Source of the DNA: an uncultured Candidatus Saccharibacteria bacterium
GTDB lineage: Bacteria > Patescibacteriota > Saccharimonadia > Saccharimonadales > JACQNP01
Assembly: GCA_964590725.1 (NCBI GenBank)
Contig: CAZPWF010000002.1
Span: 38,846 to 102,845, forward strand
Reading direction: 5' to 3'
Length of the DNA: 64,000 nt
Shown here: one piece after another, positions 40,625 to 59,666 of the stretch
Numbering within the stretch: the stretch's first letter is position 1
How the letters are laid out: each line of letters begins with the position of its first letter
Position numbers and translations under genes: made by a program
Notes under the pieces: generated by a model
Told to the model about the DNA's origin: nothing
The model's database searches: none
What the model saw: only the letters and a program-made list of their open reading frames with translations

Positions 40625-40630
40625 AGCATA

Positions 40631-40656: not shown

Positions 40657-40669
40657 TTATCATTACTGC

Positions 40670-41527: not shown

Positions 41528-41535
41528 TGTATAAT
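41528..41535 (+). promoter_or_regulatory. -10 box TGTATAAT, 7 nt upstream of the hisS ATG
   Basis: TGTATAAT at 41528-41535 and ATG at 41543. Confidence 0.45.
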
Positions 41536-41542
41536 CAATTAA

Positions 41543-42775
41543 ATGGCATTACCAACACAATCATACAAAGGCACCAGGGATTTTTATCCAGATGAGATGC
41601 GCATCCGCAAGTGGATGTTCGAAAAATGGCGGAATGTTTGCGAAAGCTTTGGCTATGAAGAGTATGATGGACCGATTTTAGAATCCCTTGAATTATATTC
41701 ATCAAAGACAAGTGACGAGATTGTAAACGAGCAGACATATAGTTTTACTGATCGTGGTGACCGCAAAGTCGTCATGCGTCCAGAAATGACGCCAACGGTT
41801 AGCCGTATGGTCGCTGCCAAGCGTCAAGAGTTAGCCTATCCGCTCCGCATGTATAGTATTCCAAACTGTTTTCGATATGAACGTCCTCAGAAAGGTCGTT
41901 TACGAGAGTTCTGGCAACTTAATGTTGATATTTTCGGAGTTGAGGGTGTAAGTGCTGAAGTAGAAATGATTTTGATGATCGATAGACTAATGAAAACTTT
42001 CGATGCAACTGAAAGTATGTATGAAATCCGAATCAACTCCAGAACACTTTTAAATATCGCCATCGAAGCATCAAAAGTAAAAACCAGCACGACAGATGTG
42101 ATCAGACTGATAGATGCTTTTGACAAACTAGATAGAAATGAGTTCATAAGCAAGCTTACCGACAATGTTGAAGATTCGAATTCTTTGATGAATTTCCTGG
42201 AAGGAGAAAACAAAGACTTAGCAATGACAGATTTGATCGAGTCACTTCAACTCGCAGGCGTTAATAACGTTCGATTTGTGCCAACAGTTGCACGGGGATT
42301 TGACTACTATACAGATATTGTTTTTGAAGTTTTTGACACTAATCCAGAAAACAACCGTTCAATGTTTGGCGGCGGTCGATATAACGGCCTGGTTGGCGCA
42401 TTTGGCGTCGAGCCTGTTCCTACGGTGGGTTTTGGTATGGGTGACGCCACGTTCTTTAATTTTCTAGAGAGCAACAATTTATTACCAGAAATTAAACCGG
42501 AGACAGATATCTACATTGCGACAATTGGTGGAGTTGAAGTGCAGGCTCAGGAAATCGCTCAAGTTCTACGTACGAACGGCAAAAATGTTGCTGTTGATTT
42601 GTCAGGTAAAAAGTTAGATAAACAAATTAAAACTGCTGACAAAAAAGGCATCAAATATGTTTTGTTTGTGGGAGAACAAGAACTAGAGACGGGAAAATTT
42701 AATTTGAAAAATATTGACTCAGGAGAAGAGCAGTTAGTTGACCTAGAAACATTGATTAATAGTTTGGGCAAATAG
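41543..42775 (+). CDS. hisS: Histidyl-tRNA synthetase
   Basis: GTRDFYPDEM, MRPEMTPTVSRM, FRYERPQKGRLREFWQ, GGGRYNGL, and an anticodon-binding C-terminal domain. Confidence 0.93.
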   Translation: MALPTQSYKGTRDFYPDEMRIRKWMFEKWRNVCESFGYEEYDGPILESLELYSSKTSDEIVNEQTYSFTDRGDRKVVMRPEMTPTVSRMVAAKRQELAYPLRMYSIPNCFRYERPQKGRLREFWQLNVDIFGVEGVSAEVEMILMIDRLMKTFDATESMYEIRINSRTLLNIAIEASKVKTSTTDVIRLIDAFDKLDRNEFISKLTDNVEDSNSLMNFLEGENKDLAMTDLIESLQLAGVNNVRFVPTVARGFDYYTDIVFEVFDTNPENNRSMFGGGRYNGLVGAFGVEPVPTVGFGMGDATFFNFLESNNLLPEIKPETDIYIATIGGVEVQAQEIAQVLRTNGKNVAVDLSGKKLDKQIKTADKKGIKYVLFVGEQELETGKFNLKNIDSGEEQLVDLETLINSLGK

Positions 42776-42781
42776 CATAGC

Positions 42782-43231
42782 ATGACTGCCTCAAATCATG
42801 TCATCACAGGCGTTCTGATCGGAGCAGTAATAACAAACCCAGTGGCTATTCCTATCGCTTTCTTAGCTCATTTTGCTCTTGATGCGTTGCCTCATTTTGG
42901 GTTGAATGAACATACTGACAGAAAGTTTCTAGTTGTTTTAAGTATGGATGCTGGGCTTGCTGCGGCATTGTTGCTAGTACTTTTTATTTTGCAGCCCAAT
43001 TATTGGCCAATAATTGTTGCTTCAGGAATAGCGTGCGCTAGCCCAGATCTTATGTGGTTCCCTCGATGGATATTGGAGCTTCAGGGCAAAAAACCGAAAC
43101 CTATGGGACCAATTGCCCGATTTCATGCCAAAATTCAATGGGCAGAACGACAGCGGTGGTGGGGTTTACTTTCTGAGTTAATCTGGTTCGGGACTATGTT
43201 TATACTAGCTGGCCGAACTTTAACTTTCTAA
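42782..43231 (+). CDS. Integral membrane protein (possibly a YdjM/DUF457-like metal-dependent hydrolase)
   Basis: 149 aa with 3-4 TM helices. It has the His/Asp pattern NH...AHFALDALPH near the N-terminus. Confidence 0.4.
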   Translation: MTASNHVITGVLIGAVITNPVAIPIAFLAHFALDALPHFGLNEHTDRKFLVVLSMDAGLAAALLLVLFILQPNYWPIIVASGIACASPDLMWFPRWILELQGKKPKPMGPIARFHAKIQWAERQRWWGLLSELIWFGTMFILAGRTLTF

Positions 43232-43258
43232 ATTAGGCTAGAAAAGTAGGTCATCATC

Positions 43259-43267
43259 TGTTAGAGT
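43259..43267 (+). promoter_or_regulatory. -10-like box TGTTAGAGT, 8 nt upstream of the tig ATG
   Basis: TGTTAGAGT at 43259-43267 and ATG at 43276. Confidence 0.35.
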
Positions 43268-43275
43268 GTTTACCT

Positions 43276-44562
43276 ATGCAAGTAAAACGAACTAATATAT
43301 CCGAGACAGAAGTATCGCTTACTGTCGTCACATCTGACACAGAACTACAAACCATAAAAGAAGGTGTACTGACTAAGCTAGCTAGAAGTGTTAAGCTTCC
43401 TGGTTTTCGTGAAGGTAAGGCTCCTCTTTCTCTAGTTGAAAAAAATGTTGACGAATCAGCTTTGCAATCCGAATTTTTAGAAGAAGCGATCAACCAATTA
43501 TATCCTCAGGCGGTATTGTCTGAGAAACTTAGACCAGTAGATCGACCGGAAATTTCTATTAAAAAATACGTACCATTTTCTACTTTAGAATTTGAGGCCA
43601 AAGTACCAGTGGTAGGTGAGATTAAGCTTGCAGACTACAAAAAGATTAAAAAAACACCCACAAAAGCTAAGATTACATCCGAAGACGTAGACCAGGTCTT
43701 GTCGTCGCTTCAGAAACGAATAGCTGAAAAGAACGATGTTGCCCGAGCTGCCAAGAATACTGATGAAGTTTGGATAGATTTTACTGGAGTCGATGAAAAA
43801 GGAAACAAAATCAATGGTGCCGACGGTAAGGACTATCCGCTAGTTCTTGGTAGTAATACATTTATTCCGGGCTTTGAGCCAGAACTTGTTGGTAAGAAAG
43901 TTGGTGACAAAACTACATTTACACTAACTTTTCCAAAAGACTATGGCGTTAAATCGATGGCGAATAAAAAAGTTACTTTTACCGTCCAAGTTAGTAAAGT
44001 TCAAGAAGTCACCGAGCCGAAGCTTGATGATGATTTTGCAGCAAAATCTGGACCATTCACAACCCTCAAACAGTTAAAGGAAGATATTAAAAAGCAGCTT
44101 GAGGTTGAAAGACAACAGCAAGTCGATCGTGAGTTCGAATCCGAACTTGTTCGCGAGATAACAGCTAAGTCTAAAGTGTCCGTGCCAAAAGTGCTAGTCG
44201 AAGAACAAGTCGACCGTATGCTTGAAGAGCTAAAGCAGAACCTAGTCTATCGTGGACAAACGTTCTCTGAGTTTCTTGACTCAGAAGGTGAGACAGAAGA
44301 ATCATATCGCGAAAAATCACTGGCACCACAGGCTGAAGAACGAGTTAAGGCCAGCTTGGTATTAACCGAAATTTCAGAAAAAGAGAATCTCGACGTAACT
44401 CCAGAGGAACTAGAAATCAGAATTCAACTTCTAAAAGGCCAGTACAAGGATCAAGCCATGCAGGCTGAGCTAGATAAGCCAGAAAACCAGAATGACATTG
44501 CTTCAAGAATTCTGACTGAGAAAACAGTCGCAAAATTGATTGAGTATTCTTCGAGCAAGTAA
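43276..44562 (+). CDS. tig: Trigger factor
   Basis: N-terminal ribosome-binding motif GFREGKAP, an FKBP-like central domain and a helical C-terminal domain. It lies upstream of clpP, as is usual. Confidence 0.92.
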   Translation: MQVKRTNISETEVSLTVVTSDTELQTIKEGVLTKLARSVKLPGFREGKAPLSLVEKNVDESALQSEFLEEAINQLYPQAVLSEKLRPVDRPEISIKKYVPFSTLEFEAKVPVVGEIKLADYKKIKKTPTKAKITSEDVDQVLSSLQKRIAEKNDVARAAKNTDEVWIDFTGVDEKGNKINGADGKDYPLVLGSNTFIPGFEPELVGKKVGDKTTFTLTFPKDYGVKSMANKKVTFTVQVSKVQEVTEPKLDDDFAAKSGPFTTLKQLKEDIKKQLEVERQQQVDREFESELVREITAKSKVSVPKVLVEEQVDRMLEELKQNLVYRGQTFSEFLDSEGETEESYREKSLAPQAEERVKASLVLTEISEKENLDVTPEELEIRIQLLKGQYKDQAMQAELDKPENQNDIASRILTEKTVAKLIEYSSSK

Positions 44563-44574
44563 AAACTATATAAA

Positions 44575-44601
44575 TTAGCACTCTTGACTATTGAGTGCTA
44601 A
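44575..44601 (+). promoter_or_regulatory. Perfect CIRCE operator (TTAGCACTC-N9-GAGTGCTAA) embedded in the clpP promoter
   Basis: TTAGCACTC at 44575-44583, spacer TTGACTATT, GAGTGCTAA at 44593-44601. The spacer contains the -35 TTGACT (44584-44589), and a -10 TATTAT lies at 44608-44613. Confidence 0.85.
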
Positions 44602-44648
44602 TTTTAGTATTATGTCTAGTACACACTTGAATATAGGAGAATAATTAT

Positions 44649-45239
44649 ATGACAACAAATTCAGTACTAGTCCCAACCGTAATAGAATCAGAAGGCCGCA
44701 TCGAACGTGCTTATGATATATACTCTAGATTACTAAAAGACAGAATAATCTTTCTAGGGACTGACGTTAATGAGCACACAGCAAATCTAATTGTTGCTCA
44801 GCTCCTATTTCTTGATAACGAAGACAGCAAGAAGGACATATATCTTTACATAAACAGCCCGGGTGGTAGTGTTTACGACGCCTTGGCAATTTATGACACA
44901 ATGCAGTACATAAAGAGTGACATACAAACGGTAGGAATAGGTGTGCAGGCGTCAGCAGCAGCATTTTTACTAAGTAGTGGAACTAAAGGTAAACGTTTTA
45001 TACTACCAAATTCTACAGTTATGATTCATCAGCCATCTTCTGGCACTCGTGGCAAGGTTACGGACATGGAAATTGATCTGAAAGAATCGCTCAGGATAAA
45101 GCATCGATTGAATGAAATTATGGCAAAAAATACTGGCCAGACAGTAAAGCGTATCCAAGACGATATGGAAAGAGACTATTGGATGACTGCAGAAGAGGCC
45201 AAAAAATACGGAGTTGTTGACAAAGTTATTGTTAAGTAA
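44649..45239 (+). CDS. clpP: ATP-dependent Clp protease proteolytic subunit
   Basis: RIIFLG, the catalytic Ser context [11 protein letters not shown], His in MIHQPS, and Asp in [25 protein letters not shown] upstream. Confidence 0.95.
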
Positions 45240-45257
45240 ATACAACAATATTCAATT

Positions 45258-45545
45258 ATGGACAACCAAAGTCATTCCACAGAACTAAACTCAGAAGTCG
45301 CTGCCTTATACCTAAAGCGAATAGGTTACATTGAAGCCACTTGGGATAATGTGCTCGAGAATCGAATAGGAAGCCATGCTTTACGAACAATGATTTTGAT
45401 TGGTCAAGGTGACAAAAGAGATGCTGTTGAAATATACAATTATCTGCGCGAAAGCGAAGGCTTAGGCCCAATTGACCCAGAAATAGGTGCACGTATTGTT
45501 GGCTCTGGGATTGACGCCGCAAGGCACCTTAGTCATGAAAATTAA
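45258..45545 (+). CDS. Hypothetical protein (95 aa) in the position where clpX is often found
   Basis: ORF only; no recognisable motif. Confidence 0.35.
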   Translation: MDNQSHSTELNSEVAALYLKRIGYIEATWDNVLENRIGSHALRTMILIGQGDKRDAVEIYNYLRESEGLGPIDPEIGARIVGSGIDAARHLSHEN

Positions 45546-45735
45546 TCATTTATTTGTAAAATATTTGACATTTGCTAATTAGTCGTCCAAACTCTTACAT
45601 TAAGAAGTAGTGTACGTTCGGGCTGTGCTGTATTTTTTTAAGATACGTGTACCAAAAACCCATGTAGTGAGCTTCAATTCTCCAAAAAAAATCATTACAT
45701 CAATTCTAAATAATTTAGTGGGAGCCCATTTATTT

Positions 45736-48700
45736 ATGGCAAAAAGTAGTACGACGCACGCCGCAAAACGAAAATATTTTACAGAAACAGATGACGTGAT
45801 TGATTTACCAAATCTCGTCAATCACCAAAACAAATCATTCCAATGGTTTGTAGAAGAAGGGCTCGGGGAGCTTTTATCAGAGATTAGTCCCATTGATGAT
45901 TACACGGGTACAAAATTAACACTACGTTTTAAAGATTACAGATTCGAGAAACCAAAATTAACTGAGGCAGAAGCCCGAGAAAACAATGTAAGTTATGACG
46001 CGCCGCTAAAGGCAGTAGTTGAGCTAACCAACAAAGTTACGGGTGAGGTTAAAGACCAAGAGATTTACCTTGGTGATTATCCTTGGATGACCGAACGAGG
46101 AACTTTTGTTATTAACGGTGCAGAACGTGTCGTTGTATCTCAATTAATAAGATCTGCCGGTGTTTTCTTTACTGGCGATCTTCATGGTTCGCGTCGATTA
46201 TATGGGGCAAAAGTTATCCCGGGTCGTGGTGCATGGCTAGAATTTGAAACGGCTGCATCTGGTGCGATATTCGTTAAAATTGACCGTAAGAGAAAAATTG
46301 CAGTTACAACATTGCTGCGTGCTCTAGGTGTGACTGATGCTCATATGAGAGATCTATTCAAGCATGTTGATACGGGTAAAGTAAGCTATTTGGACGCAAC
46401 TTTTGACAAAGACCCAACAAAAGGCGCAAACGAATCACTTATTGAAGTATATCGACGTCTTCGACCTGGCGATCTTGCTACTGTAGACAACGCTAGAAGC
46501 TTGCTTGAAAACATGTTCTACAACTTCAAAAGGTTTGATTTTAGTCGCGTTGGACGTTACAAGATAAACAAGAGGCTCAATCTTGATGTAGCTAACACTG
46601 CCGAGAATCGCGTAATGCGACTCGAAGACCTCGTTGCTATCATTGCTGAAATTATTCGATTAAATAATACTCAAGAACCTGCCGACGACATAGACTCTCT
46701 TGCTAATCGTCGAGTGAAACTAGTTGGTGAACTTGTTCAACGTCAGTTCCGAATTGGTCTACTCCGTATGGAACGCAATACAAAAGATCGAATGAGTATG
46801 AGCGAGATTGAGACGGTTACGCCTGCTCAGCTTATTAATGCTCGCCCAATTGTTGCTGCAGTTCGTGAGTTTTTTGCTAGTTCACAGCTTTCACAATTTA
46901 TGGATCAAATCAACCCACTCAGTGAACTTGCTCACAAGCGCCGCTTAAGTTCTATGGGTCCTGGTGGATTAAGTCGAGAACGTGCCGGCTTTGAAGTCCG
47001 TGATGCACACGCTACGCATTACGGTAGGATCTGTGCCGTAGAGACTCCAGAAGGCGCCAACATTGGCTTGGTATTGAACCTAGCGAGTTACGCACGCATA
47101 AATGATTACGGTTTTATTGAGACTCCATATCGGCGCGTTATTAACGCAGTTACTGCAAAAGAAGCTGCTGGTTATACGGCTTTAGTCGATCTAGAAGACG
47201 AAAAAGGAAAAGCTATTGTAAAAGCTGGCGCCAAAATTACTGCTGAGTCAGCAAAAAAATTGGCTGCAGTAAAATCGCAGATAACCTGGCCAGTCAAAGC
47301 TGTTGTTACGAACGAAGTCACTTATCTTGATGCTGCCGCAGAAGAATCTGCGGTTATAGCCAGTGCCGCTGAAGCATACGACGAAAACGGACATTTCATC
47401 CGCGACCGTGTCTCTGCTCGTAGCCACCTTAAGTCAGGTGAAGTTGATGCTGACGAGGTAACACACATGGATGCTTCACGTAAGCAGATTATTGGATCTA
47501 GCGCTGGACTTATACCATTCATTGAAAAGAACTATGTGTATCGCTCATTGATGGGAAGCAACCAGCAACGCCAAGCAGTTCCGCTTATAAAGCCAGATTC
47601 TCCTATTGTAGGAACCGGGCTAGAAGAAGTCACTGCTCGTAACAGTGGTCAGTTAATTGTTGCCGAAGCTGATGGTGAAGTTATTAAGGCTACAGGTTCA
47701 GAAGTTGTCGTGAAGTACAAAGAAGGTAATGTTACATATCAACCTCAGCACTTTGTTCGTAGCAACGAGGGTAGCTCAATCAACCAAAAAGTAGCTGTTA
47801 GCACTGGAGATAAGCTCAAAACTGGCGATCCAATCATCGAAGGTATGTCTATCGCAGGCGGTGAGCTTGCTCTTGGCAAGGATTTGCTTGTCGCATTTAT
47901 GCCTTGGTCTGGCTACAACTTTGAAGATGCAATTATTGTTTCTCGAAAACTTGTAGAAGATGACACACTTACATCCGTTCATATTGTTGATTTCATGGTT
48001 GAAGTTCGTGAAACCAAACTAGGTCCTGAAATTGTTACTCGTGATATTCCAAACGTTGCAGAAGACGCTTTACGGCATCTTGACGATGATGGCATCGTGC
48101 GAATTGGTGCCGAAGTTCATCCTGGAGATATCCTTATTGGAAAAATTACGCCTAAGGGTGAGCAGGAATTAAGTAGTGAAGAGCGCTTGCTTCGTGCAAT
48201 CTTTGGCGAAAAAGCCAAAGAAGTGCGTGATACCTCACAACGCATGCCAAACGGCAAACACGGTAAAGTTGTTGGCGTTAAGGTCTTTTCTCGAGCTAAT
48301 GGGCACGAGCTAAAAGCTGGTGTCATAATGCAGATTCAAGTTTATGTTGCCCAAATGCGTAAGATCGCAGTTGGTGATAAGCTTGGTGGCCGTCATGGTA
48401 ACAAGGGTGTAATCGCTCGAGTACTACCTGTAGAGGATATGCCATTTACAGAAGACGGAACGCCGCTCGATATCATTCTTAACCCTCTCGGTGTGCCGAG
48501 TCGTATGAACATCGGTCAATTGTTTGAAACTCACTTAGGTATGGCTGCGCGAGCGCTTGGTATGAAAGTAGCAAGTCCATCGTTTAACGGCGTGCCTACT
48601 GAAAAGATTGAGGAATTGCTAGTAGAGGCTGGACTGCCAAAAGATGGTAAGCAGCAACTATTTGACGGTCGAACAGGTGAAGCCTTCACTGAACGAACTA

Positions 48701-49290
48701 CCGTCGGTAGTATGTACATGATTAAGCTAAATCACATGATTGCCGATAAGATTCACGCACGTTCGACAGGACCATACACAATGGTTACTCAGCAACCACT
48801 TGGTGGAAAGGCTCAAAATGGCGGTCAGCGATTTGGCGAAATGGAAGTGTGGGCACTTGAAGCATATGGTGCCAGCAACATTTTGCAAGAAATGCTTACC
48901 ATTAAGTCAGATGACGTTTATGGACGATCAAAAGCTTACGAATCTATCATTAAGCAAACAGAAATTGTTGGGCCAAAAGTTCCAGAGAGCTTCAATGTTC
49001 TCGTTAAAGAGCTTCAAGGTCTTGGGCTTAAGGTTGACCTAGTGCGAAGTAACGATGTAATCGATGCAGAAGAAGTTTTAGCCGAGAATATTAAAGATGA
49101 GGCGGCGCATCTATCTGATGTTGAAGTCCCAGCTCCGGTTATCTCTGATGTTGACGTCACAGAGGATGCCGCCCTAGCAGAATTCGACGTAATTGGTTTA
49201 GATGAGTCTGTGGCTGCAACTGTTACAGAAATTGAAGATACAGAAGATATTTTGGTAAACGTTGAAGAAGATGAAAAGGAGACTGCATAA
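45736..49290 (+). CDS. rpoB: DNA-directed RNA polymerase subunit beta, with an 81-aa acidic C-terminal tail
   Basis: Universal beta blocks are present (GTFVINGAERVVVSQL, NPLSELAHKRRLS, GDKLGGRHGNKGV, NGGQRFGEMEVWALEAYGA). I chose the start at MAKSSTT (45736), which has GGGAG upstream; the track start at 45610 is an upstream in-frame artefact. Confidence 0.95.
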   Translation: MAKSSTTHAAKRKYFTETDDVIDLPNLVNHQNKSFQWFVEEGLGELLSEISPIDDYTGTKLTLRFKDYRFEKPKLTEAEARENNVSYDAPLKAVVELTNKVTGEVKDQEIYLGDYPWMTERGTFVINGAERVVVSQLIRSAGVFFTGDLHGSRRLYGAKVIPGRGAWLEFETAASGAIFVKIDRKRKIAVTTLLRALGVTDAHMRDLFKHVDTGKVSYLDATFDKDPTKGANESLIEVYRRLRPGDLATVDNARSLLENMFYNFKRFDFSRVGRYKINKRLNLDVANTAENRVMRLEDLVAIIAEIIRLNNTQEPADDIDSLANRRVKLVGELVQRQFRIGLLRMERNTKDRMSMSEIETVTPAQLINARPIVAAVREFFASSQLSQFMDQINPLSELAHKRRLSSMGPGGLSRERAGFEVRDAHATHYGRICAVETPEGANIGLVLNLASYARINDYGFIETPYRRVINAVTAKEAAGYTALVDLEDEKGKAIVKAGAKITAESAKKLAAVKSQITWPVKAVVTNEVTYLDAAAEESAVIASAAEAYDENGHFIRDRVSARSHLKSGEVDADEVTHMDASRKQIIGSSAGLIPFIEKNYVYRSLMGSNQQRQAVPLIKPDSPIVGTGLEEVTARNSGQLIVAEADGEVIKATGSEVVVKYKEGNVTYQPQHFVRSNEGSSINQKVAVSTGDKLKTGDPIIEGMSIAGGELALGKDLLVAFMPWSGYNFEDAIIVSRKLVEDDTLTSVHIVDFMVEVRETKLGPEIVTRDIPNVAEDALRHLDDDGIVRIGAEVHPGDILIGKITPKGEQELSSEERLLRAIFGEKAKEVRDTSQRMPNGKHGKVVGVKVFSRANGHELKAGVIMQIQVYVAQMRKIAVGDKLGGRHGNKGVIARVLPVEDMPFTEDGTPLDIILNPLGVPSRMNIGQLFETHLGMAARALGMKVASPSFNGVPTEKIEELLVEAGLPKDGKQQLFDGRTGEAFTERTTVGSMYMIKLNHMIADKIHARSTGPYTMVTQQPLGGKAQNGGQRFGEMEVWALEAYGASNILQEMLTIKSDDVYGRSKAYESIIKQTEIVGPKVPESFNVLVKELQGLGLKVDLVRSNDVIDAEEVLAENIKDEAAHLSDVEVPAPVISDVDVTEDAALAEFDVIGLDESVAATVTEIEDTEDILVNVEEDEKETA

Positions 49291-52200
49291 ATGAGAAGGC
49301 ATTCACAAGGAACTACTATTGCAGATTTCGATGCGGTTAGATTGGCTGTAGCAAGCGCTGATGACATCCTTGATTGGAGTCATGGTGAAATTACAAAACC
49401 AGAAACTATAAACTACCGAACCCAGAAGCCAGAAAGAGATGGTCTTTTCTGTGAGCGAATTTTTGGTCCAGTAAAGGATATTAATCCTCATGATGCAAAA
49501 TATAAAGGCGTTAGATCTAGAGAAGCTGCTGTTGATAAAAATGGCGAAATAGTAACCAAGTCTATTGTTCGACGTGAACGAATGGGTCACATTACTTTAG
49601 CGTCTCCAGTTGCTCACATTTGGTTTCTTCGTGGCACACCATCTGCAGTTGGTTTGCTCCTTGGCTTAACTGTCAAGAACCTAGAACGCGTTGCTTACTT
49701 TGCTAGTTACATAATAAAAAATGTTGACGAAGAAAAGCGCAATCAAATCCAGCTAGATAAAGAAGCAGAATTTAATGCCGCTCAAGAGGCAATTAAGCTT
49801 CGCTACGAAGCAGAAGCTAAAAAAGAAGACTCTAACGTCAAGGCTCTTGCAGAGATGCAGACCAAAGAACTTGAGGAATTGTCAGTAGAATACGAAGAAG
49901 TAAAAACACAGTTGAATAGCCTAGTAAAGTTACAGCTAATTTCAGAAACTGACTATCGTTCTTTGCCAGATGATTTGCGTGGACTCGTTGAGGTTGGTAT
50001 GGGTGGAGCTTCACTCAAGGCGCTATTAGACGAAATTGATCTTGAAGTACTAATTGCAAAACTAACTGAAGAAGCAGAAGAAGCTAAAGGTCAGCGTAAA
50101 AAGAAGCTCATGAAGCGACTTCGACTTCTTGAGAGCATGCATCGTGCCGGCATTAAACCTGGAAGTATGTGCGTAAGTGTCTTGCCGGTTATTCCTCCAG
50201 ACCTTCGCCCAATGGTGCAGCTTACTGGTGGGCGATTTGCTACTAGTGACCTTAACGATTTATATCGCCGAGTCATTAACCGAAATAATCGACTTAAGAA
50301 ACTAATTGAACTAAATGCTCCTGAAGTTATTCGCCGAAACGAACAACGAATGCTCCAAGAAGCGGTCGATGCACTTATCGACAACAACAATGCTCGTTCT
50401 GGTCGTGCAGTTGCTGCTACAGGTCAACGACGACGATTGAAGAGCTTAAGTGACATGCTCAAAGGTAAGCAAGGACGATTTCGTCAAAACTTACTAGGTA
50501 AGCGTGTTGATTATTCTGGTCGTTCAGTTATTGTTGCCGGACCAGAACTAAAGATCTTCCAGTGTGGTCTTCCAAAGATGATGGCTCTTGAACTATTCAA
50601 GCCATTTGTTATTGGATATCTCATTGCGAATGAATATGCTCACAACATTCGTTCTGCTACCAGAATGATTGAGACAGGTGAGACTGCTGTATGGGACGCA
50701 CTTGATGAAGCAATTCGAGAGCGATACGTGCTGCTTAACCGTGCTCCAAGTTTGCACCGTTTGAGTATTCAAGCGTTTCACCCTGTGCTTATTGAAGGCA
50801 AGGCGATCCAGCTACATCCATTAGTTTGTAAAGGATTTAATGCTGACTTTGATGGTGACCAGATGGCGGTTCATTTACCACTATCAGATGCGGCACAAAA
50901 GGAAGCACGCGAAATTTTGTCAAGCAACAAGAACTTGCTCAAGCCTGCCGACGGTTCGCCGATCTTACACATTGAGCAAGATATTGTTCTAGGTTGTTAC
51001 TATCTTACATATGACCGACCAGGTACAGATACGCAAAAAACCAAAGTGTTTTCAAGTATTGACGAAGCATTCATGGCTCTTGATGCTGGTAGCGCTACCT
51101 TGCAGACTGTTGTGAGAGCTCCATTTAGAGGTGAAATACGTACTACAACTGTTGGAAGATTGATTTTTAACGAAATATTTCCTGATGATTTCCCATTCCA
51201 GGATGAAGCGATGACCAAGAAGAAGCTTTCAAGTGTATTGTCGTTGGCCTACCAAAAATACGGACAGGACAAGACAGCCGAGCTCGCTGATGAACTTAAA
51301 GATATTGGCTTTAAGTATGCGACAGTATCGGGCCTATCTATGGGTATGACTGATTTTAGTGAGATCAATGGCTTAGATAAGATTCTTAACGAAGGCGAGA
51401 ATAAAGCAGCCGAAATAAGTGAGCAATACGATCAAGGTTTTATAACCGACGAAGAACGTTACCGATTAACTGTCGATACTTGGATGAATACTGACGCTGA
51501 AGTTCAGGATCGCTTGTCGAAGCAGTTTGCTGTTGAAGATAGCTCGATGTCGATTGCTGTTATGTCTGGTGCTCGTGGTAACATTGGCCAGGTTAAAACC
51601 GCAGTTGGTATGCTTGGTGTTACTACCGACGCCACAGGTCGCGCTATTGAGCTTCCAATTCGTTCAAACTATAAGGGTGGTCTCAATCCGCTTGAATACT
51701 TCACTGCAACACGTGGAGCACGTAAGGGTATGATTGACACAGCACTTAAGACAGCTGATTCAGGCTACCTAACGCGTCGTCTTGTTGATGTAAGCCAAGA
51801 CGTATTTACTATTGATGAAGATTGTATTGACCCGGGCTTCCCAGTCCATCGTTCAGATTCAGAAGAGATTGGTGTCTCTTATGCATCAAGACTTGTCGGT
51901 CGATTTGCAGCAGATAAAGTTGGTTCTCATGTAAAAGCAGGAGAGCTTATCAATTTGGCTGTCGCCGAAGCTATAGATGCTGATGCGGCTATCGATGGCG
52001 TTCGTATAATGAGCGCTTTAAGCTGTACGAATGAGCGTGGCGTTTCACGTAAATCTTACGGTGTTGATCCGGCTACTGGTGAAGTTGTTGCACCGCATCA
52101 CCCAATTGGAGTTATTGCTGCCCAAAGTATCGGTGAGCCGGGTACACAGTTGACGCTTCGAACATTCCATGGCGGTGGTTCCGCTGCGGCAGACGATATT

Positions 52201-53127
52201 ACTCAAGGTCTGCCACGTGTTGAAGAACTCTTTGAAGTTAGAACTCCGAAAGGTCAAGCATTCTTGTCAGATATAGATGGAGTTGTTGCTGCATGGGAAG
52301 AGGGCGATCACTATGTAGTGCAAGTAAGTGCTGACGATAAAGAAAAAGTTAAATACGAGATTAATGGCCGTATCGTTCAGGTGGCCCATGGAACAGAAGT
52401 CGTGATCGGTGATGTATTAGCAGCCGCAGAAGACGATCGAGAACCGTTAATAGCTACAATTGCAGGCAAAGTAGAAGTCAATAAAAAGTCAGTTTCTGTA
52501 GTGCCTACCGGTAAGAGTGTAGTACGTTACGAAATACCTGGATTCAAGCAATTGACCGTTAAAGACGGCGATCTTGTTGAAGCTGGGCAACGACTTACTA
52601 ACGGTTCTATCAATTTGCACGAGCTAATGCGCTTGAAGGGTGTTGAATCAACACAGCGCTATATCATGAACGAAATTCTTCGTATCTTTGCGTCACAAGG
52701 TCAAAATATAGCTGACAAGCACTTAGAAATCATAGTTCGACAGATGTTCAGCCGTGTCCAAATTGAAGATGCAGGTGATACAGAATTCGTAACTGGAGAT
52801 ATAGTCAGTAAGCTTGCTGTAGTTGAAGCGAACGAACAACTTGCTACAGAAGGAAAAACTGTTGCTAAGTTCACTCAACTACTACTTGGTATTACCAAAG
52901 CAAGTCTTTCAACCGATTCGTTCCTAAGTGCTGCTAGTTTCCAAGACACAACTCGAGTACTTATTGCTGCTGCGACCAGCGGTAAAGTTGACAAGCTATA
53001 TGGTCTAAAGGAAAACGTTATCCTTGGAAGACGTATTCCAGTTGGAACTGGCTATAATGCTAGTCATAACATTCCCGAAGATGTCGATGAGGTAGCTGTA
53101 ATAGAAGATGCCGTTGCAGCCGAGTAG
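49291..53127 (+). CDS. rpoC: DNA-directed RNA polymerase subunit beta-prime (cysteines of both zinc sites substituted)
   Basis: The catalytic motif [12 protein letters not shown], the bridge helix and the trigger-loop region ([21 protein letters not shown]) are present. The ATG directly abuts the rpoB TAA. Confidence 0.95.
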   Translation: [1278 protein letters not shown]

Positions 53128-53239
53128 TACTTGCTATTTAGTTAACAAACTGTTAAAGTTAAATTTGTAAAAATAAGTAATCTGAGCCTGGTTTATGGCA
53201 TGAGCCCGATGCAGTAGATTACAGTTCTAAGGAGAACAA

Positions 53240-53653
53240 ATGCCAACAATAAATCAATTGGTGCGTAAACCACGCGTCAAGGTGACTACTAAAAGTAAGT
53301 CGCCAGCTATGCAGCGCGTAGTAAATAACTTGAAAACTAAAAACTATGAAAAATCAGCACCATTTAAGCGTGGTGTATGTGTCAAGGTGACAACCAAGAC
53401 TCCAAAAAAGCCAAACTCCGCACTTCGTAAGGTTGCGCGTGTACGTCTAAGTAATGGCTACGAAGTCTGGGCATACATCGGTGGCGAAGGTCACAACCTT
53501 CAAGAACATGCTGTAGTGTTAGTTCGCGGTGGCCGAGTAAAGGATCTTCCTGGTGTGCGTTATCACATCGTACGCGGAACTTTGGATCTTCAAGGTGTTC
53601 AGAATCGCAAAAGAGGTCGTTCTAAGTACGGCGCCAAGAAAGACAGTAAATAA
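53240..53653 (+). CDS. rpsL: Ribosomal protein uS12
   Basis: [22 protein letters not shown] and [25 protein letters not shown] upstream. Confidence 0.95.
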
Positions 53654-53655
53654 TT

Positions 53656-53865
53656 ATGAGTATTGAATCAAGCGTTACAGAAGCAACACTTTGCGAAGCG
53701 GTTGTTTGTGATAAGTTCAACAATTGGGAGAATCTAACAAAAAAATCTCTCGGCACAACTTCGGGCACCGCTCCTGGCGCAGCTGAGCAAATTGCTACAT
53801 GTAATGCAGTAAGTGGATGTATTTTCGAGCAGATCGTAGAAATTAGAGGAGTTGAAAATGCCTAG
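53656..53865 (+). CDS. Unannotated 69-aa acidic, four-Cys ORF filling the rpsL-rpsG spacer (coding status to be tested)
   Basis: The ATG is 2 nt after the rpsL TAA and the stop lies 8 nt inside rpsG. By hand count, 28 of 69 codons start with G, which is coding-like periodicity. No SD. Confidence 0.4.
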   Translation: MSIESSVTEATLCEAVVCDKFNNWENLTKKSLGTTSGTAPGAAEQIATCNAVSGCIFEQIVEIRGVENA

Positions 53866-54334
53866 GAAAGTTACCAAATCATTAGTACGAGAAGTCCAAC
53901 CCGATCGGCTATACAATAGTATTCAAGTTCAAAAAATGATTAATCGTGTTATGCAGCATGGTAAAAAACAAGTTGCAGAGCGATTGGTTTATGGCGGTAT
54001 GCAAAAAGCAGCCGACAAGCTTAAAGTTCAGAATCCACTGGATGTATTTGAACAAGCATTTGCAAATGTTAAGCCTGCTGTAGAGACTCGTTCACGTCGT
54101 GTCGGAGGCGCTAATTACCAGATTCCTTTTGAGGTTCGTGGCCAACGTCAACAGCACCTTACTACCATGTGGTTTGTCGCTGCGGCTCGTTCACGTAAAG
54201 GCATGAGTATGGAAGACAGATTAGCTTTAGAGCTAGTTGATGCCTATAACAACACTGGCTCTGCTGTAAAGAAAAAAGAAGACACTCACAAGATGGCTGA
54301 AGCTAACCGAGCCTTTGCTCACTTCGCGAGATAG
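53858..54334 (+). CDS. rpsG: Ribosomal protein uS7
   Basis: MPRKV..., VMQHGKKQVAERLVY, and ETRSRRVGGANYQIP. GAGGAG SD upstream. I chose the ATG at 53858 rather than the TTG at 53852. Confidence 0.95.
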   Translation: MPRKVTKSLVREVQPDRLYNSIQVQKMINRVMQHGKKQVAERLVYGGMQKAADKLKVQNPLDVFEQAFANVKPAVETRSRRVGGANYQIPFEVRGQRQQHLTTMWFVAAARSRKGMSMEDRLALELVDAYNNTGSAVKKKEDTHKMAEANRAFAHFAR

Positions 54335-54337
54335 ATC

Positions 54338-54646
54338 ATGGAGCACGCTGCTACTATTTGCCAGAGAAAGTGCTCAGTAGTTTTAGGTCCAGTTAGGGAT
54401 ATCACGGAGCTTCTTGTAGATGGCAAAGATAGCGGAGCAGTTGTTACGACCGACGGACTTAGCGTCACCTCGCAGCCACTCATAGATCGAGGGGACGGTT
54501 CGGAAGGTAACCTAGCATATCTAGATGCTATTCTAAACTGCACAGGACCCGAAGGTCGCAAATTATTTGGGCGACTTCCATGTCAAGCATATGTAAGCGA
54601 GCAGAGTTTGAGCGAAAATATAGTAACTATTAACAGAGGTCAATAA
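54338..54646 (+). CDS. Unannotated 102-aa ORF exactly filling the rpsG-fusA spacer (coding status to be tested)
   Basis: The ATG is 3 nt after the rpsG TAG, and the TAA overlaps the fusA ATG (TAATG). By hand count, G occurs at codon positions 1, 2 and 3 in 39, 26 and 16 of 102 codons. Confidence 0.4.
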   Translation: MEHAATICQRKCSVVLGPVRDITELLVDGKDSGAVVTTDGLSVTSQPLIDRGDGSEGNLAYLDAILNCTGPEGRKLFGRLPCQAYVSEQSLSENIVTINRGQ

Positions 54647-56733
54647 TGGCAACCAAGAAAACACCAATGCAAAAAATTCGAAATATGGGCATTATTGCTC
54701 ATATTGACGCAGGTAAAACAACTACAACCGAAGGTATTCTTTACCGAACCGGGTTAAAGCACAAAATTGGTGCAGTTCACGAAGGTGAGACTACCACTGA
54801 TTGGATGGCTCAGGAGCGCGAAAGAGGAATTACTATTGTCTCGGCTGCTGTAACCTGTTATTGGAAAGATCATCAGATCAACATTATCGATACTCCGGGT
54901 CACATTGACTTCACGGTTGAAGTTGAGCGTTCACTACGTGTTCTTGACGGTGCTTGTGTTGTGTTTGACGGTAAAATGGGTGTCGAGTCCCAGTCAGAAA
55001 CAGTCTGGCGACAAGCAGACAAGTATGGCGTTCCAAGAGTCTGCTTCATTAATAAGATCAACCAAACTGGCGGTGACTTTTACAAATCTCTCGATACAAT
55101 TCACGCACGTCTTACTAAACGCGCATTCCCAATTCACCTACCAATCGGTTTTGAGCAAGCTATAAATGGTGTTGTCGACCTTGTAACAATGAAGGCGTAT
55201 ACCTACAAAGAATTCACCGACAAAGAACTTGTCGAGGGCGAAATCCCAGCTGATATGCTGGATCAGGCCAAGAAATACCGCAGTCTACTTATTGAAAACG
55301 CCGTCGCAGAAGATGAAGCCATGCTAGAAAAGTATTTCGAAGTTGGCGAAGACGGTTTATCGACGGATGAAATAAAACAAGCAATTCGAAGTGCAATTTT
55401 GTCTGGTAATTTCTTTGCTGTTACTGGTGGTGATGGCCGTGGGGTTATTGTTGAAAAAGTTCTAGATATGGTTGTAGATTTCTTGCCAAGTCCAGAAGAT
55501 CGTGGATCTTCATGGGGTACCCATCCAAAGACTGGCGAAGAAATTGAACGCGAACCGAATGAGAGCGCTCCTCTTTCAGGTTTAGCATTTAAGATCACAA
55601 CTGACCCATTTGTTGGAAAATTGGCTTACTACCGTGTTTACTCAGGTAAATTGATGGCTGGGTCGTACGTTTTAAACAGTTCTACAGGTGAAAAAGAAAG
55701 AATTGGCCGTATCGTTCGAATGCAGGCAGATAAGCGTGAGGATGTAACTGAAGTCGGCGCAGGCGATATTGCAGCTATAGTTGGACTTAAAGGCACTACT
55801 ACGGGTCACACTCTATGTGATCCGACCAACCCGATTGTTTTGGAGAGCATTACTTTCCCAGAGCCTCCAGTTTCAATTGCTATTGAACCAAAGACCAAAG
55901 CTGACCAAGAAAAAATGTCGATTGCTATGCAACGACTTGCTGAAGAAGACCCAACCTTTAGGATTAATGTTGATGACGAAACAGGTCAAACGATTATATC
56001 TGGAATGGGCGAACTTCACTTAGAAATAATTGTCGACCGAATGAAGCGAGAATTTGGCGTAGAAGCAAACATCGGCGCGCCTCAAGTTGCCTATCGTGAA
56101 ACAATTCGCAAGGACGCTGTAGAGGCACAAGGTAAATTCATTCGTCAATCAGGTGGTCGTGGTCAATACGGTGACGTTTGGGTACGTCTTAGCCAGAACG
56201 AACAAGGAAAAGGTTTTGAATTTATCAATTCAATCAAAGGCGGTGTCGTTCCAGCTGAATACATTAAGCCAGTTAGCGAGGGCATAAAAGAAGCCATGAA
56301 CAACGGTGTTGTCGCAGGATACCCAGTTGTGGATATAAAGGTTGAGCTTTACGATGGAAGTTATCACGATGTTGACTCAAGTGAAATGGCCTTCAAAGCA
56401 GCCGGTTCGATCGGTTTCAAAGAGGGAATGAAAAAAGCAAATCCAGTTCTTCTAGAGCCTGTCATGAAAGTTGTCGTTGTGACTCCAGAAGAATTCATGG
56501 GTGACGTGATCGGTGATTTGAACAGTAAACGTGGTCGAATCGAATCAATGGAAGATCTTAGTGCGGGCGTAAAGGAAATAACCAGTTTTGTGCCTCTGGG
56601 CGAAATGTTTGGTTATACAACTAATCTAAGAAGTTCTACTCAAGGTCGCGCTAGCAGTAGTATGGAGTTACATCACTACGCTGACGTTCCGACTCATGTT
56701 GCTGAAGCTATCGTTGCAAAAAACTCTAAGTAA
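54646..56733 (+). CDS. fusA: Elongation factor G
   Basis: G1-G4 motifs (AHIDAGKTT, DTPGH, NKIN), and domains II-V are recognisable. Confidence 0.95.
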   Translation: MATKKTPMQKIRNMGIIAHIDAGKTTTTEGILYRTGLKHKIGAVHEGETTTDWMAQERERGITIVSAAVTCYWKDHQINIIDTPGHIDFTVEVERSLRVLDGACVVFDGKMGVESQSETVWRQADKYGVPRVCFINKINQTGGDFYKSLDTIHARLTKRAFPIHLPIGFEQAINGVVDLVTMKAYTYKEFTDKELVEGEIPADMLDQAKKYRSLLIENAVAEDEAMLEKYFEVGEDGLSTDEIKQAIRSAILSGNFFAVTGGDGRGVIVEKVLDMVVDFLPSPEDRGSSWGTHPKTGEEIEREPNESAPLSGLAFKITTDPFVGKLAYYRVYSGKLMAGSYVLNSSTGEKERIGRIVRMQADKREDVTEVGAGDIAAIVGLKGTTTGHTLCDPTNPIVLESITFPEPPVSIAIEPKTKADQEKMSIAMQRLAEEDPTFRINVDDETGQTIISGMGELHLEIIVDRMKREFGVEANIGAPQVAYRETIRKDAVEAQGKFIRQSGGRGQYGDVWVRLSQNEQGKGFEFINSIKGGVVPAEYIKPVSEGIKEAMNNGVVAGYPVVDIKVELYDGSYHDVDSSEMAFKAAGSIGFKEGMKKANPVLLEPVMKVVVVTPEEFMGDVIGDLNSKRGRIESMEDLSAGVKEITSFVPLGEMFGYTTNLRSSTQGRASSSMELHHYADVPTHVAEAIVAKNSK

Positions 56734-56744
56734 TAAGGTTTAAT

Positions 56745-56972
56745 ATGAGAAAAAGAGAGACGATTACCCCAATTGTTAACGCAAATGTGTTACACCCACC
56801 ACAAGAAAATGATATCCACGATATGTTAAATTCCGTTCGTAACATAGCTCGTCTTGCTTTGCACCCCGGAAAAGCCATAAGTGATTTTCTAGGTGACCTT
56901 TCCGTAGCTGCAGGGACAGTTGATGCCGGCTTAGGTTATCAGAATATTGACGACGCAAGTGTCCAAAAGTAG
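56745..56972 (+). CDS. Unannotated 75-aa ORF between fusA and tuf
   Basis: The ATG is 11 nt after the fusA stop, with AAGG 7 nt upstream. By hand count, 28 of 75 codons start with G. Confidence 0.4.
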   Translation: MRKRETITPIVNANVLHPPQENDIHDMLNSVRNIARLALHPGKAISDFLGDLSVAAGTVDAGLGYQNIDDASVQK

Positions 56973-57024
56973 AATCAAGTTTGGGTTGAATTAGATTTTG
57001 TGCTCACAAACTAGTGTATTGGAC

Positions 57025-57053
57025 TTTACAAACACCTTAAGTTTAGATAGAAT
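57025..57053 (+). promoter_or_regulatory. Candidate sigma-70-type promoter for tuf (TTTACA-17 nt-TAGAAT)
   Basis: -35 TTTACA at 57025-57030 and -10 TAGAAT at 57048-57053, giving a ~70-nt 5' UTR that ends in an AGGAG SD. Confidence 0.45.
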
Positions 57054-57129
57054 TTACAAGTAACTCGTGTGAGTGTATTGCTACACTTGCGCAAGAAAGC
57101 TAATAAGATTAATAGGAGTAACAATAGAG

Positions 57130-58311
57130 ATGGCAGATTTTGATCGAAGTAAGCCTCATGTAAACGTCGGTACTATGGGTCATGTGGACCATGGTAAAAC
57201 CACACTAACCGCAGCAATTACGACTGTACTTGCTAAGAAACTACCAAGTGATGTTAACCAGAAGGTTGACTACGCACAGATTGATAATGCTCCAGAAGAA
57301 AAAGCTCGTGGAATAACGATTGCTACTTCTCACCAGGAATATGAATCAGAAAAGCGTCACTATGCTCATGTTGATATGCCAGGTCACGCTGACTATGTTA
57401 AGAACATGATTACGGGTGCTGCCCAAATTGATGGTGCAGTTCTAGTTGTGTCTGCCGCTGATGGTCCTATGCCACAAACCCGCGAACACGTACTACTTGC
57501 TAAGCAAGTTGGTGTTCCAAGTATCTTGGTTTTCATGAACAAGATGGATCTTGCTGATCCAGAACTAGTTGAATTAGTAGAAATGGATATTCGTGAATTG
57601 CTTGCCAAGTACGAGTTTGACGAAAACTGTCCAATTATTAAGGGTTCTGCTACAAAAGCATTAGAAGGTTCCGCATCTGATGAGGACGCAATCATGGAGC
57701 TTGTTAAGGCTATGGATGATTACATCCCAGAGCCAAAGCGTGAGCTTGATAAGCCTTTCCTTATGCCTATCGAAGACGTCTTCTCGATCAAGGGTCGTGG
57801 TACTGTTGCGACAGGTCGTGTTGAACAAGGTATTGTTAAGGTTAACGAAGAAGTTGAAATTGTTGGTATAAAAGATACTGTCAAATCTGTCGTAACTGGC
57901 GTCGAAATGTTCAAGAAGAATCTTGATCAGGGTCAAGCTGGTGATAACGTTGGTATTCTTCTTCGAGGTATCGAGCGTGACGATATTGAGCGCGGTCAAG
58001 TTTTGGCTAAGCCCGGTACGATCACTCCACATACTGAGTTTGATGCAGAAGTTTATATTCTCACCAAAGAAGAAGGTGGACGTCACACTCCATTCTTCAA
58101 AGGCTACAAGCCACAGTTCTACTTCCGTACTACGGACGTAACTGGTGAGGTTGAGCTTCCAGCTGACAAAGAAATGGTTATGCCAGGTGATACTATCACT
58201 TTCAAGGTAAAACTATTAGCTCCAATCGCAATGGAACAAGGTTTACGCTTCGCAATTCGTGAAGGTGGCCGAACCGTTGGTGCTGGCGTTGTTACTAAAA
58301 TTAACAAATAG
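57130..58311 (+). CDS. tuf: Elongation factor Tu
   Basis: [32 protein letters not shown] and NKMD. I chose the start at MADFDRSK (57130) with AGGAG upstream; the track start at 57073 is an artefact. Confidence 0.95.
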
Positions 58312-58332
58312 CAACTGTTAGCCCTAAAAAAA

Positions 58333-58354
58333 GAGCCCCAAGGGGCTCTTTTTT
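58333..58354. terminator. Bidirectional rho-independent terminator between tuf and the convergent membrane-protein gene
   Basis: GAGCCCC-AA-GGGGCTC hairpin flanked by an A run upstream and TTTTTT downstream. Confidence 0.8.
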
Positions 58355-58360
58355 ATATAT

Positions 58361-58945
58361 CTAGATAGTGTCTTCTGCGTTTAGTGATTGACTGTCTACT
58401 ATTTCTTGATTACGGTCATAGTAAGATTGCTCGGTAGATTCAAGTAACTTGTAAGCACCGACAGCAATTGCCGCCGACCAAGCAATGCCATAAGCGGCAT
58501 CTAGTGGGTCGCCTGTATTCGGCGCATAAAGGCTATTTGTAATTTCAAATTTCTCGCCCAAAACCTGAACAGCACTAGAAACAGCAAAGGCGGCAATAGC
58601 TGTCTGTTTTGACTTACATCGTATTAACTCCCTTGATTTGTCGATCAGCGGTGCTGTCAGGGTAACTATGCCGATCATCGCATAAGCACCAGCTGTTGTC
58701 ATAGCCGCTTCACGAAAATTACCAATGTGAGATGCAATGTCAAAAGGTTCAGGAAAACTATTTCGTTGTAAAGTTGAGTCAGAAATTGCTTCTAAAATAT
58801 TGCCACTTTGAAATAATAAGATTCCATATAGCAAGGGCTTTAATGGTGGCTTGAGTACTTCCTTAAAATTTTCAAACTCACTACGGATAGACATAAAAAT
58901 ACAATATAACATTACTATAGCGAAATCAATAGAATCTCTTGGCAA
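58361..58945 (-). CDS. Integral membrane protein (hypothetical); the true start may be the ATG at 58894
   Basis: Several hydrophobic helices. The track start is a TTG. An internal ATG (MSIRSEF) at 58894 is preceded by minus-strand TGTTATATT with 8-nt spacing. Confidence 0.5.
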   Translation of the reverse strand: MPRDSIDFAIVMLYCIFMSIRSEFENFKEVLKPPLKPLLYGILLFQSGNILEAISDSTLQRNSFPEPFDIASHIGNFREAAMTTAGAYAMIGIVTLTAPLIDKSRELIRCKSKQTAIAAFAVSSAVQVLGEKFEITNSLYAPNTGDPLDAAYGIAWSAAIAVGAYKLLESTEQSYYDRNQEIVDSQSLNAEDTI

Positions 58946-59002
58946 TTATCCCCTCAGGCCATAGTGCTCAAATAGTGATCACTTTTCGGTATACTAGTAT
59001 GT

Positions 59003-59170
59003 ATGAAACCAAAAAAACCATCTAAGCCGACTAAAGAAAATAATGCCTGGCAAGAAAAGATAGAGAAACAAGTTAACACCGAAAAGGTACAAATAGATCA
59101 CCCACGGGGTAAAGAGCGATTCGATCGAGTTATCGGTAACTCTCTAAAGAAAAAACTAAAAGAAGACTAG
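59003..59170 (+). CDS. Small Lys-rich protein, 55 aa (below the ORF-track cutoff)
   Basis: TATACT at 58990-58995 lies 7 nt upstream of the ATG at 59003. It translates to MKPKKPSKPTKENNAWQEKIEKQVNTEKVQIDHPRGKERFDRVIGNSLKKKLKED. Confidence 0.35.
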   Translation: MKPKKPSKPTKENNAWQEKIEKQVNTEKVQIDHPRGKERFDRVIGNSLKKKLKED

Positions 59171-59207
59171 AGCGAAGATCCAAGTGGGGTGCAGGAGGCG
59201 TAGGTAG

Positions 59208-59237
59208 AAAAAACCGGAGACCATTTCTGGTCTCCGG
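59208..59237 (-). terminator. Rho-independent terminator of the minus-strand secreted-peptide gene
   Basis: CCGGAGACCA-GAAA-TGGTCTCCGG (10-bp stem), followed on the minus strand by TTTTTT. Confidence 0.75.
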
Positions 59238-59269
59238 CACCTCTTAGTGCTACTTCACATCACGTATCT

Positions 59270-59518: not shown

Positions 59519-59666
59519 GATTGCATCCTTTGTGTTAAATACTAATGATGTTTTTACTTATATTGCTACTCCTTTCTGGTATCAATGAGGTCGATACCTA
59601 TAACTAGCCTAACTGAGTAACATGGGACTGCCATGAGAAAGAGTCGTACCATAGATAAATCATGTT

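Follow-up and report, generated by a model that had tools for sequence, protein, structure and literature searches.

The 64,000-nucleotide window analyzed here (an uncultured Candidatus Saccharibacteria bacterium, contig CAZPWF010000002.1, positions 38,846 to 102,845 of the forward strand) encodes an RNA polymerase (RNAP) β′ subunit, RpoC, that carries none of the four cysteines of the N-terminal zinc-binding domain (ZBD). Bacterial RNAP contains two structural zinc ions, both in β′, and in the ZBD of E. coli β′ (residues ~58-97) the Zn ligands are C70, C72, C85 and C88. The window protein belongs unambiguously to the RpoC family, yet it has the complete ligand set of neither zinc site: the ZBD is free of Cys, and the second site (site II) retains two Cys of four. 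Both sites are usually treated as fixed features of bacterial RNAP, and the finding is contrary to this textbook view. Beyond the ZBD substitutions reported in the initial annotation of this DNA, we found that the trait is lineage-wide, that site II is lost too, and that the ZBD core is remodelled at more than the four ligand positions.

Residues 12-190 of the window protein were aligned with HMMER to solved β′ chains (e.g. those of Streptomyces and Mycobacterium), with no gap across the ZBD; in this region residue numbers of the window protein are 4 lower than those of E. coli β′. P66, D68, V81 and N84 stand opposite C70, C72, C85 and C88, respectively, and the CxC...CxxC ligand pattern is absent, as is any Cys from residues 55-293. 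Each of the four codons differs from a Cys codon (TGY) by two bases, which rules out single-base sequencing errors. The flanks, FGPxKD (GLFCERIFGPVKD) and RRERMGH...HIWF, are near-identical to the canonical ones, and FGPxKD and RRERMGH are separated by 30 residues, as in 78 distinct canonical sequences. The initial annotation had argued from near-identical flanks and equal length that the alignment is unambiguous, and had read Pro, Asp, Val and Asn at the ligand positions; the ungapped alignment agrees on both counts. Cys at those positions, which the annotation had named as contrary evidence, is not what the alignment shows.

The best 120 homologs of the protein in a collection of 5.8 billion sequences share 78-100% identity with it, and where an organism is named it is nearly always Candidatus Saccharibacteria or Saccharimonadales. 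These homologs were aligned together with four more distant representatives, giving 124 sequences, and Cys was absent throughout the ZBD segment in all of them. Position 66 was P in every sequence, position 68 was D in 123 and S in one, position 81 was V in 112 and I in 12, and position 84 was N, K, R, E or Q. When the most divergent Cys-free sequences were used to seed a profile search, a deep-branching lineage emerged that is also Cys-free (~1390 aa, some labelled Saccharibacteria, contigs to 0.7-1.0 Mb). One genome per GTDB species was searched with a degenerate DNA pattern encoding FGPx[KR]DINP, which gave at least 120 matches. Among the 120 matches listed, 117 were rpoC genes whose products have a Cys-free ZBD and are 57-87.5% identical to the window protein, including those of Nanosynbacter, Saccharimonas, Nanoperiomorbaceae, Saccharimonadaceae and 'CPR2'; L021, L047 and L052 were chance matches in unrelated open reading frames (ORFs). 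How widespread the substitution is among relatives had been left as a question by the initial annotation. A Cys-free ZBD is present in all Saccharibacteria sequences examined, comprising ~200 proteins and 117 species-representative genomes.

Saccharibacteria rpoC is cleanly marked by the FGPxKD-INP signature, which flagged contigs that seem to be mis-binned. Two contigs titled Dongiaceae (L042, DATMTU010000041.1) and Dormiibacterota (L070, DATLRC010000006.1) encode a Saccharibacteria-type RpoC with a Cys-free ZBD and 65-75% identity to the window protein over ~1250 aa; they are most likely Saccharibacteria contigs placed under other phyla.

The boundary of the trait was examined in an exhaustive HMMER search of 1.84 billion representatives clustered at 50% identity, of which the best 150 clusters were analyzed, ~144 with the N-terminus present. 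Only the nearest four (P0121-P0124, 55-58% identity) lack the ZBD Cys. Because the remaining ~140 clusters have all four Cys in the segment, the departure from Cys4 is real and far beyond chance. In a neighbor-joining tree of 953 well-aligned columns, from which both zinc-site regions were left out, the nine Cys-free sequences formed an exclusive clade. The nearest Cys4 neighbors with an organism given carry the names Parcubacteria/Paceibacterota, Peribacteria and 'Patescibacteria group'. The simplest reading would be a single loss of the ZBD Cys on the Saccharibacteria stem. This view covers the 150 clusters most similar to the query, and losses may also have occurred in very divergent lineages such as Mollicutes and insect endosymbionts.

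The ZBD segment is highly conserved within the lineage, with a mean column entropy of 0.20 bits compared with 0.70 bits for the whole protein (124 sequences), which is below that of 82% of the 29-aa windows in the protein. Column-by-column comparison of 78 distinct canonical and 58 distinct Cys-free ZBDs showed that K74, Y75, K76, a hydrophobic residue at 78, K/R79, K/R81, D/E86, K/R87, G89, V92, T93, S95 and V97 (E. coli numbering) are kept. Fourteen of the 30 columns have switched residue class and are then conserved. In addition to the ligands (C70 to Pro, C72 to Asp, C85 to Val, C88 to Asn/Lys), these are aromatic 68 to Ile, E69 to Asn, G73 to Ala/Thr, R77 to Gly, aromatic 80 to Ser, G82 to Glu, I/V83 to Ala, V/I84 to Ala, V90 to Glu and E91 to Ile. 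The domain is thus kept under purifying selection, with coordinated and conserved substitutions that accompany the ligand loss.

E. coli K74, Y75, K76, K79, R81 and K87 correspond to window K70, Y71, K72, R75, R77 and K83, of which K70, K72, R75, R77 and K83 are K or R in at least 97% of distinct Cys-free ZBDs. Cys-free domains contain 6.3 basic residues on average, compared with 6.8 in canonical ones, and have a mean net charge of +2.8, compared with +3.9. In E. coli, K74 and K87 contact the promoter spacer DNA (bioRxiv 10.1101/2020.01.02.893370), while L78, K79 and the ZBD surface bind putRNA at the exit channel (PMC9378689). A deletion of the E. coli ZBD was unobtainable, and a four-Cys mutant was impaired on promoters with a weak −35 element (10.1101/2020.01.02.893370). 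At the position of Y75, where put-inactivating mutations map in E. coli, the closest homologs and the deep-branching lineage have Tyr or Phe. Many other relatives, P0121, Nanosynbacter and Saccharimonas among them, have Leu there (K-L-K), a difference within the clade that falls on the RNA-facing surface.

Site II is degenerate in the same protein. In E. coli it comprises C814, C888, C895 and C898, and it was reportedly implicated in β′ folding and RNAP assembly by Markov et al. in 1999. In the alignment to solved β′ chains, the canonical ...DC..., ...tC..., gvC and kCYG stand opposite DEDC(845), LSC(912), GVS(919) and RKS(922)YG of the window protein, leaving the four-Cys set incomplete. The surroundings are shared with canonical site II, being highly conserved and cleanly aligned (TADSGYLTRRLVDVSQDV...; ...YG.D..TG...AAQSIGEPGTQ), whereas the window protein retains two Cys and its relatives have no fixed Cys there. 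Relatives have CCSS, AAPS, SSPS, VCSS and many other combinations at the four positions, and column entropies at 845, 912 and 919 are 3.07, 1.61 and 1.84 bits (124 relatives), which indicates unconstrained drift of these three positions. Among the best 150 clusters, 137 representatives have CCCC at site II. Four others (P0179, P0184, P0202 and P0234) have lost site II (PSSD, GDSS, DHSA and PDTS, respectively) and yet keep the four ZBD Cys, so that loss of site II is recurrent in bacteria, whereas within the same 150 clusters loss of the ZBD Cys was seen in this clade only.

We propose that the ZBD of this lineage is metal-free and self-stabilized and retains its function, a reading that we consider fairly probable. 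Since both structural zincs sit in β′ and both sites are degenerate, the RNAP of the lineage is probably zinc-free. The sequences show that β′ of this lineage lost the Cys ligands of both sites, most simply on the Saccharibacteria stem; site II has decayed into drifting residues, and the ZBD has stayed at the same length under strong purifying selection. The ZBD would contact the promoter spacer, the upstream DNA and, where the RNA exit channel opens, the nascent RNA, as in canonical RNAP. Judging from the sequence, the first knuckle, E-C-x-C-G, would be replaced by N65-P66-H67-D68-A69, which resembles an Asx-Pro turn, and the second, C-[DE]-[KR]-C-G, by V81-D82-K83-N84-G85, a tight β-turn sequence in which the glycine is retained. 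Ile64, Val81 and Ile87 may give a small hydrophobic core that replaces Zn(Cys)4. We hypothesize that the segment has the same three-dimensional structure without the metal, the support for this being the turn motifs N-P-x-D and D-K-N-G. The initial annotation had offered a zinc-independent fold or an altered function as alternatives. Both were reasonable, and the evidence favors the first: retained function is favored over altered function because purifying selection is strong and the DNA- and RNA-contacting residues are kept.

Other zinc and cysteine sites in the window bear on the possible cause. The PilB/GspE-type assembly ATPase, aligned to Thermus PilF, has LDETTK...KSADNPFGY opposite the tetracysteine VCEHCK...GCERCGGTGY, and all four Cys are lost; its best 120 relatives, which are from Saccharibacteria, contain 0-2 Cys in the C-terminal part. 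In RadA the N-terminal C4 zinc ribbon, CxxC...CxxC (CSSCGASANTWSGKCYNCGEW), is intact, and the M1 aminopeptidase keeps the zinc motif HExxH...E as HELAH...E. Of four structural Cys4 sites that the window would be expected to encode, three are therefore lost (RpoC ZBD, site II and PilB) and one is kept (RadA), which points to a lineage tendency and not a genome-wide rule. The intact RadA and M1 motifs indicate that the organism still uses zinc and that the Cys loss is selective. Genome-wide elimination of Cys was rejected as the cause on the same grounds, and Cys amounts to 0.63% of residues in the window ORFs, not zero. The likely driver would be a tendency of the lineage to shed structural Zn(Cys)4 sites, which in an epibiotic parasite may save zinc or cysteine or give resistance to oxidation. 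PilB itself probably starts at Met44 (15010), because the 43 aa that the listed GTG start would add form a Cys-rich extension.

The ZBD might instead still bind metal through non-Cys ligands such as His67, Asp68, Glu78, Asp82 and Glu86, the thiolates having been swapped for carboxylate or imidazole ligands that are less sensitive to oxidation, and site I would then not be metal-free. The initial annotation had named compensating His or Asp ligands as evidence that would count against it. Candidates do exist (H67, D68, E78, D82), in or beside the former knuckles: D82 is invariant, and D68, H67 and E78 are found in 98%, 88% and 79% of distinct Cys-free ZBDs. They are not all conserved, however: several lineages have F, Y or N in place of H67, the deep-branching lineage has N or H in place of E78, and P0123 has S in place of D68. 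A potential ligand occupies one former ligand position only (C72 to D68), the others being Pro, Val and a variable Asn/Lys, and the conservation of D82 needs no metal, because E/D86 is already conserved in canonical ZBDs. Such alternative coordination seems to us quite improbable. The same segment could also have lost or altered its function, as a differently folded or flexible loop kept for another reason, such as packing on β or σ or binding of a lineage-specific factor; ZBD-dependent termination, antitermination and use of weak −35 promoters would then be altered or absent. This would fit the 14 switched columns, with core hydrophobics changed to Ala and Gly82 to Glu, the drop in net charge and the unfixed Y75 position, and terminator-like sites in positions 40000..59999 (20 kb) showed no significant enrichment over shuffles (21 vs 16.6 ± 3.8). 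It is at odds with the exactly kept length, with domain-anchoring flanks that are nearly identical to canonical ones, with the conservation of the ZBD above that of most of the protein, and with the retention of precisely those residues that are known to make DNA or RNA contacts. Clear hairpin-plus-U-tract terminators also occur at gene ends (Table 1), although the support that the scan gives to hairpin termination is anecdotal. Loss or alteration of function is, in our judgment, unlikely.

It is exceedingly improbable that the gene is a paralog, a pseudogene, a contaminant or an assembly or sequencing artefact, with the real RNAP using a canonical Cys4 β′ encoded elsewhere. The view of the genome is the 64 kb of the window, which leaves room for a second rpoC outside it. 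Against this, the ORF is unbroken, contains every β′ domain and the catalytic motif, and lies in the canonical rpoB-rpoC-rpsL-rpsG-fusA-tuf context; the trait occurs in hundreds of independent assemblies, contigs of ~0.7-1.2 Mb among them; and close relatives are all Cys-free, the nearest Cys4 proteins with an organism given carrying non-Saccharibacteria names. rpoC is a single-copy marker in bacterial and candidate phyla radiation (CPR) genome-quality marker sets. The initial annotation had raised a paralog beside a canonical rpoC as a concern; as far as the data allow a test, the gene is not one, given its match to TIGR02386, the adjacent rpoB and its Cys-free relatives.

Several observations, in addition to the limited view of the genome, weigh against a metal-free ZBD with retained function. 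Zinc economy is not genome-wide, the RadA and M1 aminopeptidase sites being intact. The fold may differ from a zinc ribbon, since 14 of 30 positions have changed (G82 to E and I83/V84 to A/A among them), and Y75 is Leu in many host-associated relatives, so that the canonical contacts are not all fixed. The one-Cys degenerate zinc ribbon of Haloferax TFEα binds zinc weakly (PMC5861453), which lends weight to alternative ligands. The AlphaFold2 models speak neither for nor against it: the predicted local distance difference test score (pLDDT) was <50 for residues 1-107 when residues 1-345 were modelled with 55 close homologs, and <50 for 1-116 when residues 1-1200 were modelled with a 69-sequence alignment that included homologs of 51-54% identity. 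In the latter run it was <50 also in the universally conserved catalytic segments 297-326, 360-427 and 477-552, and we attribute the low confidence to monomer-only modelling on shallow alignments, not to the ZBD itself.

The window rpoC is an ordinary orthologous gene of a Saccharibacteria (TM7; Patescibacteria/CPR) genome. Its product scored 1431.8 bits against the NCBIfam rpoC equivalog TIGR02386 (cutoff 963.5), and Pfam RNA_pol_Rpb1 domains 1-5 are recorded for an identical protein (P0001). The rpoC ATG immediately follows the rpoB stop codon (TAA-ATG), and rpoB is directly upstream on the same strand in all 104 related loci with upstream sequence. By NCBIfam assignment, tig and clpP lie 5' of rpoB-rpoC, and rpsL, rpsG, fusA and tuf lie 3' (Table 1).

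Table 1. Coordinates of rpoC, its zinc-site positions and other features of the window.
Feature	Coordinates	Strand	Basis or remark
rpoC, RNA polymerase β′ (1278 aa)	49291..53127	+	ORF list, translation, NCBIfam TIGR02386
ZBD-equivalent segment I64-I92, no Cys	49480..49566	+	ungapped HMMER alignment to solved β′ chains
P66, opposite E. coli C70	49486..49488	+	CCT
D68, opposite E. coli C72	49492..49494	+	GAT
V81, opposite E. coli C85	49531..49533	+	GTT
N84, opposite E. coli C88	49540..49542	+	AAT
Catalytic Mg-binding NADFDGD, intact (residues 517-523)	50839..50859	+	translation
Degenerate site II	51823..52056	+	alignment of residues 751-1000 to solved β′ chains
Site II C845, E. coli C814 position	51823..51825	+	
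Site II C912, E. coli C888 position	52024..52026	+	
Site II S919, E. coli C895 position	52045..52047	+	
Site II S922, E. coli C898 position	52054..52056	+	
rpoB, RNA polymerase β (1226-aa ORF)	45610..49290	+	NCBIfam TIGR02013/NF001616 above cutoff
rpsL	53240..53653	+	NCBIfam equivalog above cutoff
rpsG	53852..54334	+	NCBIfam equivalog above cutoff
fusA	54646..56733	+	NCBIfam equivalog above cutoff
tuf	57073..58311	+	NCBIfam equivalog above cutoff
PilB/GspE-type assembly ATPase	14881..16623	+	motif positions 16258..16278, 16390..16419
RadA, N-terminal C4 zinc ribbon kept	29825..31174	+	
M1 aminopeptidase, zinc motif kept	21705..24287	-	
Hairpin-plus-U-tract terminator	40630..40651	+	immediately 3' of tRNA-Leu (40540..40624)
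Hairpin-plus-U-tract terminator	59238..59213	-	11 stem pairs, 7 G-C; downstream of lysyl-phosphatidylglycerol-synthase-like gene

The likely start of rpoB is Met43 (ATG at 45736), the 42-residue extension from the GTG start (45610..45735) being unlike RpoB. A 95-aa ORF of unassigned function (45258..45545, MDNQSHSTELNSEV...) sits between clpP and rpoB. The rpsG-fusA spacer (54335..54645, 311 nt) is filled exactly by a 102-aa ORF on the forward strand (54338..54646). It was rejected as a real gene: it has no family match, the spacer DNA is not conserved, and tblastn gave no match in 21 relatives with both flanking genes. The ORF is probably spurious. Among these 21 relatives, the spacer measures 270-430 nt in 13, 19-47 nt in four and at least 730 nt in four.

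No description of a Cys-free β′ in Saccharibacteria or CPR was found in the full-text literature, of which coverage was incomplete, so that a prior mention is possible; PMC13622651 and PMC8672522 were checked as prior reports and are unrelated. With somewhat more doubt than confidence, we suggest that this may be the first natural cellular multisubunit RNAP without structural zinc, within a lineage-wide shedding of Zn(Cys)4 sites. The E. coli ZBD has roles in promoter opening, RNA-exit-channel regulation, termination and phage antitermination. If the proposal holds, a multisubunit RNAP would have no intrinsic need of zinc to assemble or function, and the lineage would offer a natural, evolution-tested template for a metal-free exit-channel ZBD, separating the residues needed for function from those needed for metal binding. 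Termination and antitermination behavior might differ, and the trait might be an adaptation of epibiotic parasites to zinc limitation or thiol-oxidizing stress at the host surface. The combination of a Cys-free RpoC ZBD with a PilB that has lost its tetracysteine raises the question of metal or cysteine economy in Patescibacteria. Saccharibacteria are a major and widespread lineage with cultivable, genetically tractable members.

Comparison with the canonical β′ ZBD shows the same position, length, flanks, operon, orthologous protein and retained contact residues, whereas P, D, V and N/K stand in for the four Cys and the residue class has changed at ten other positions, so that zinc binding is not expected. 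A related case in the transcription machinery is TFEα/β of Haloferax volcanii, in which a degenerate zinc ribbon and loss of the Fe-S cluster go together with retained function (PMC5861453). The two share a lineage-specific loss of metal-ligand Cys; unlike RpoC, TFEα is an archaeal initiation factor with one Cys left, and its persisting weak zinc binding cautions against assuming that a degenerate site is fully metal-free. Precedents in which a Cys4 site gave way to a metal-free version while the fold stayed are the adenylate kinase lid and the zinc-independent ribosomal protein paralogs. The adenylate kinase lid occurs in a Cys4 zinc form and in a zinc-free form held by a hydrogen-bond network (PMC4227292). 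It resembles the RpoC ZBD in the lineage-wide replacement of Zn(Cys)4 with coordinated changes in neighboring residues, and there the domain and its function are kept (PMC4227292). It differs in protein and fold and in the replacing residues, His/Ser/Asp/Tyr compared with Pro/Asp/Val/Asn in RpoC, and the structure shared by its two forms has been solved, whereas that of the RpoC ZBD is inferred. The zinc-independent (C−) paralogs of ribosomal proteins L31, L33, L36, S14 and S18 (AltRPs), which are linked to zinc sparing (PMC5912738, PMC13343924), are likewise Cys-free zinc-ribbon modules in core information-processing machinery. The C− proteins are extra paralogs, switched on under zinc limitation beside a Cys-containing copy; in RpoC, by contrast, one orthologous gene has changed constitutively across the lineage.

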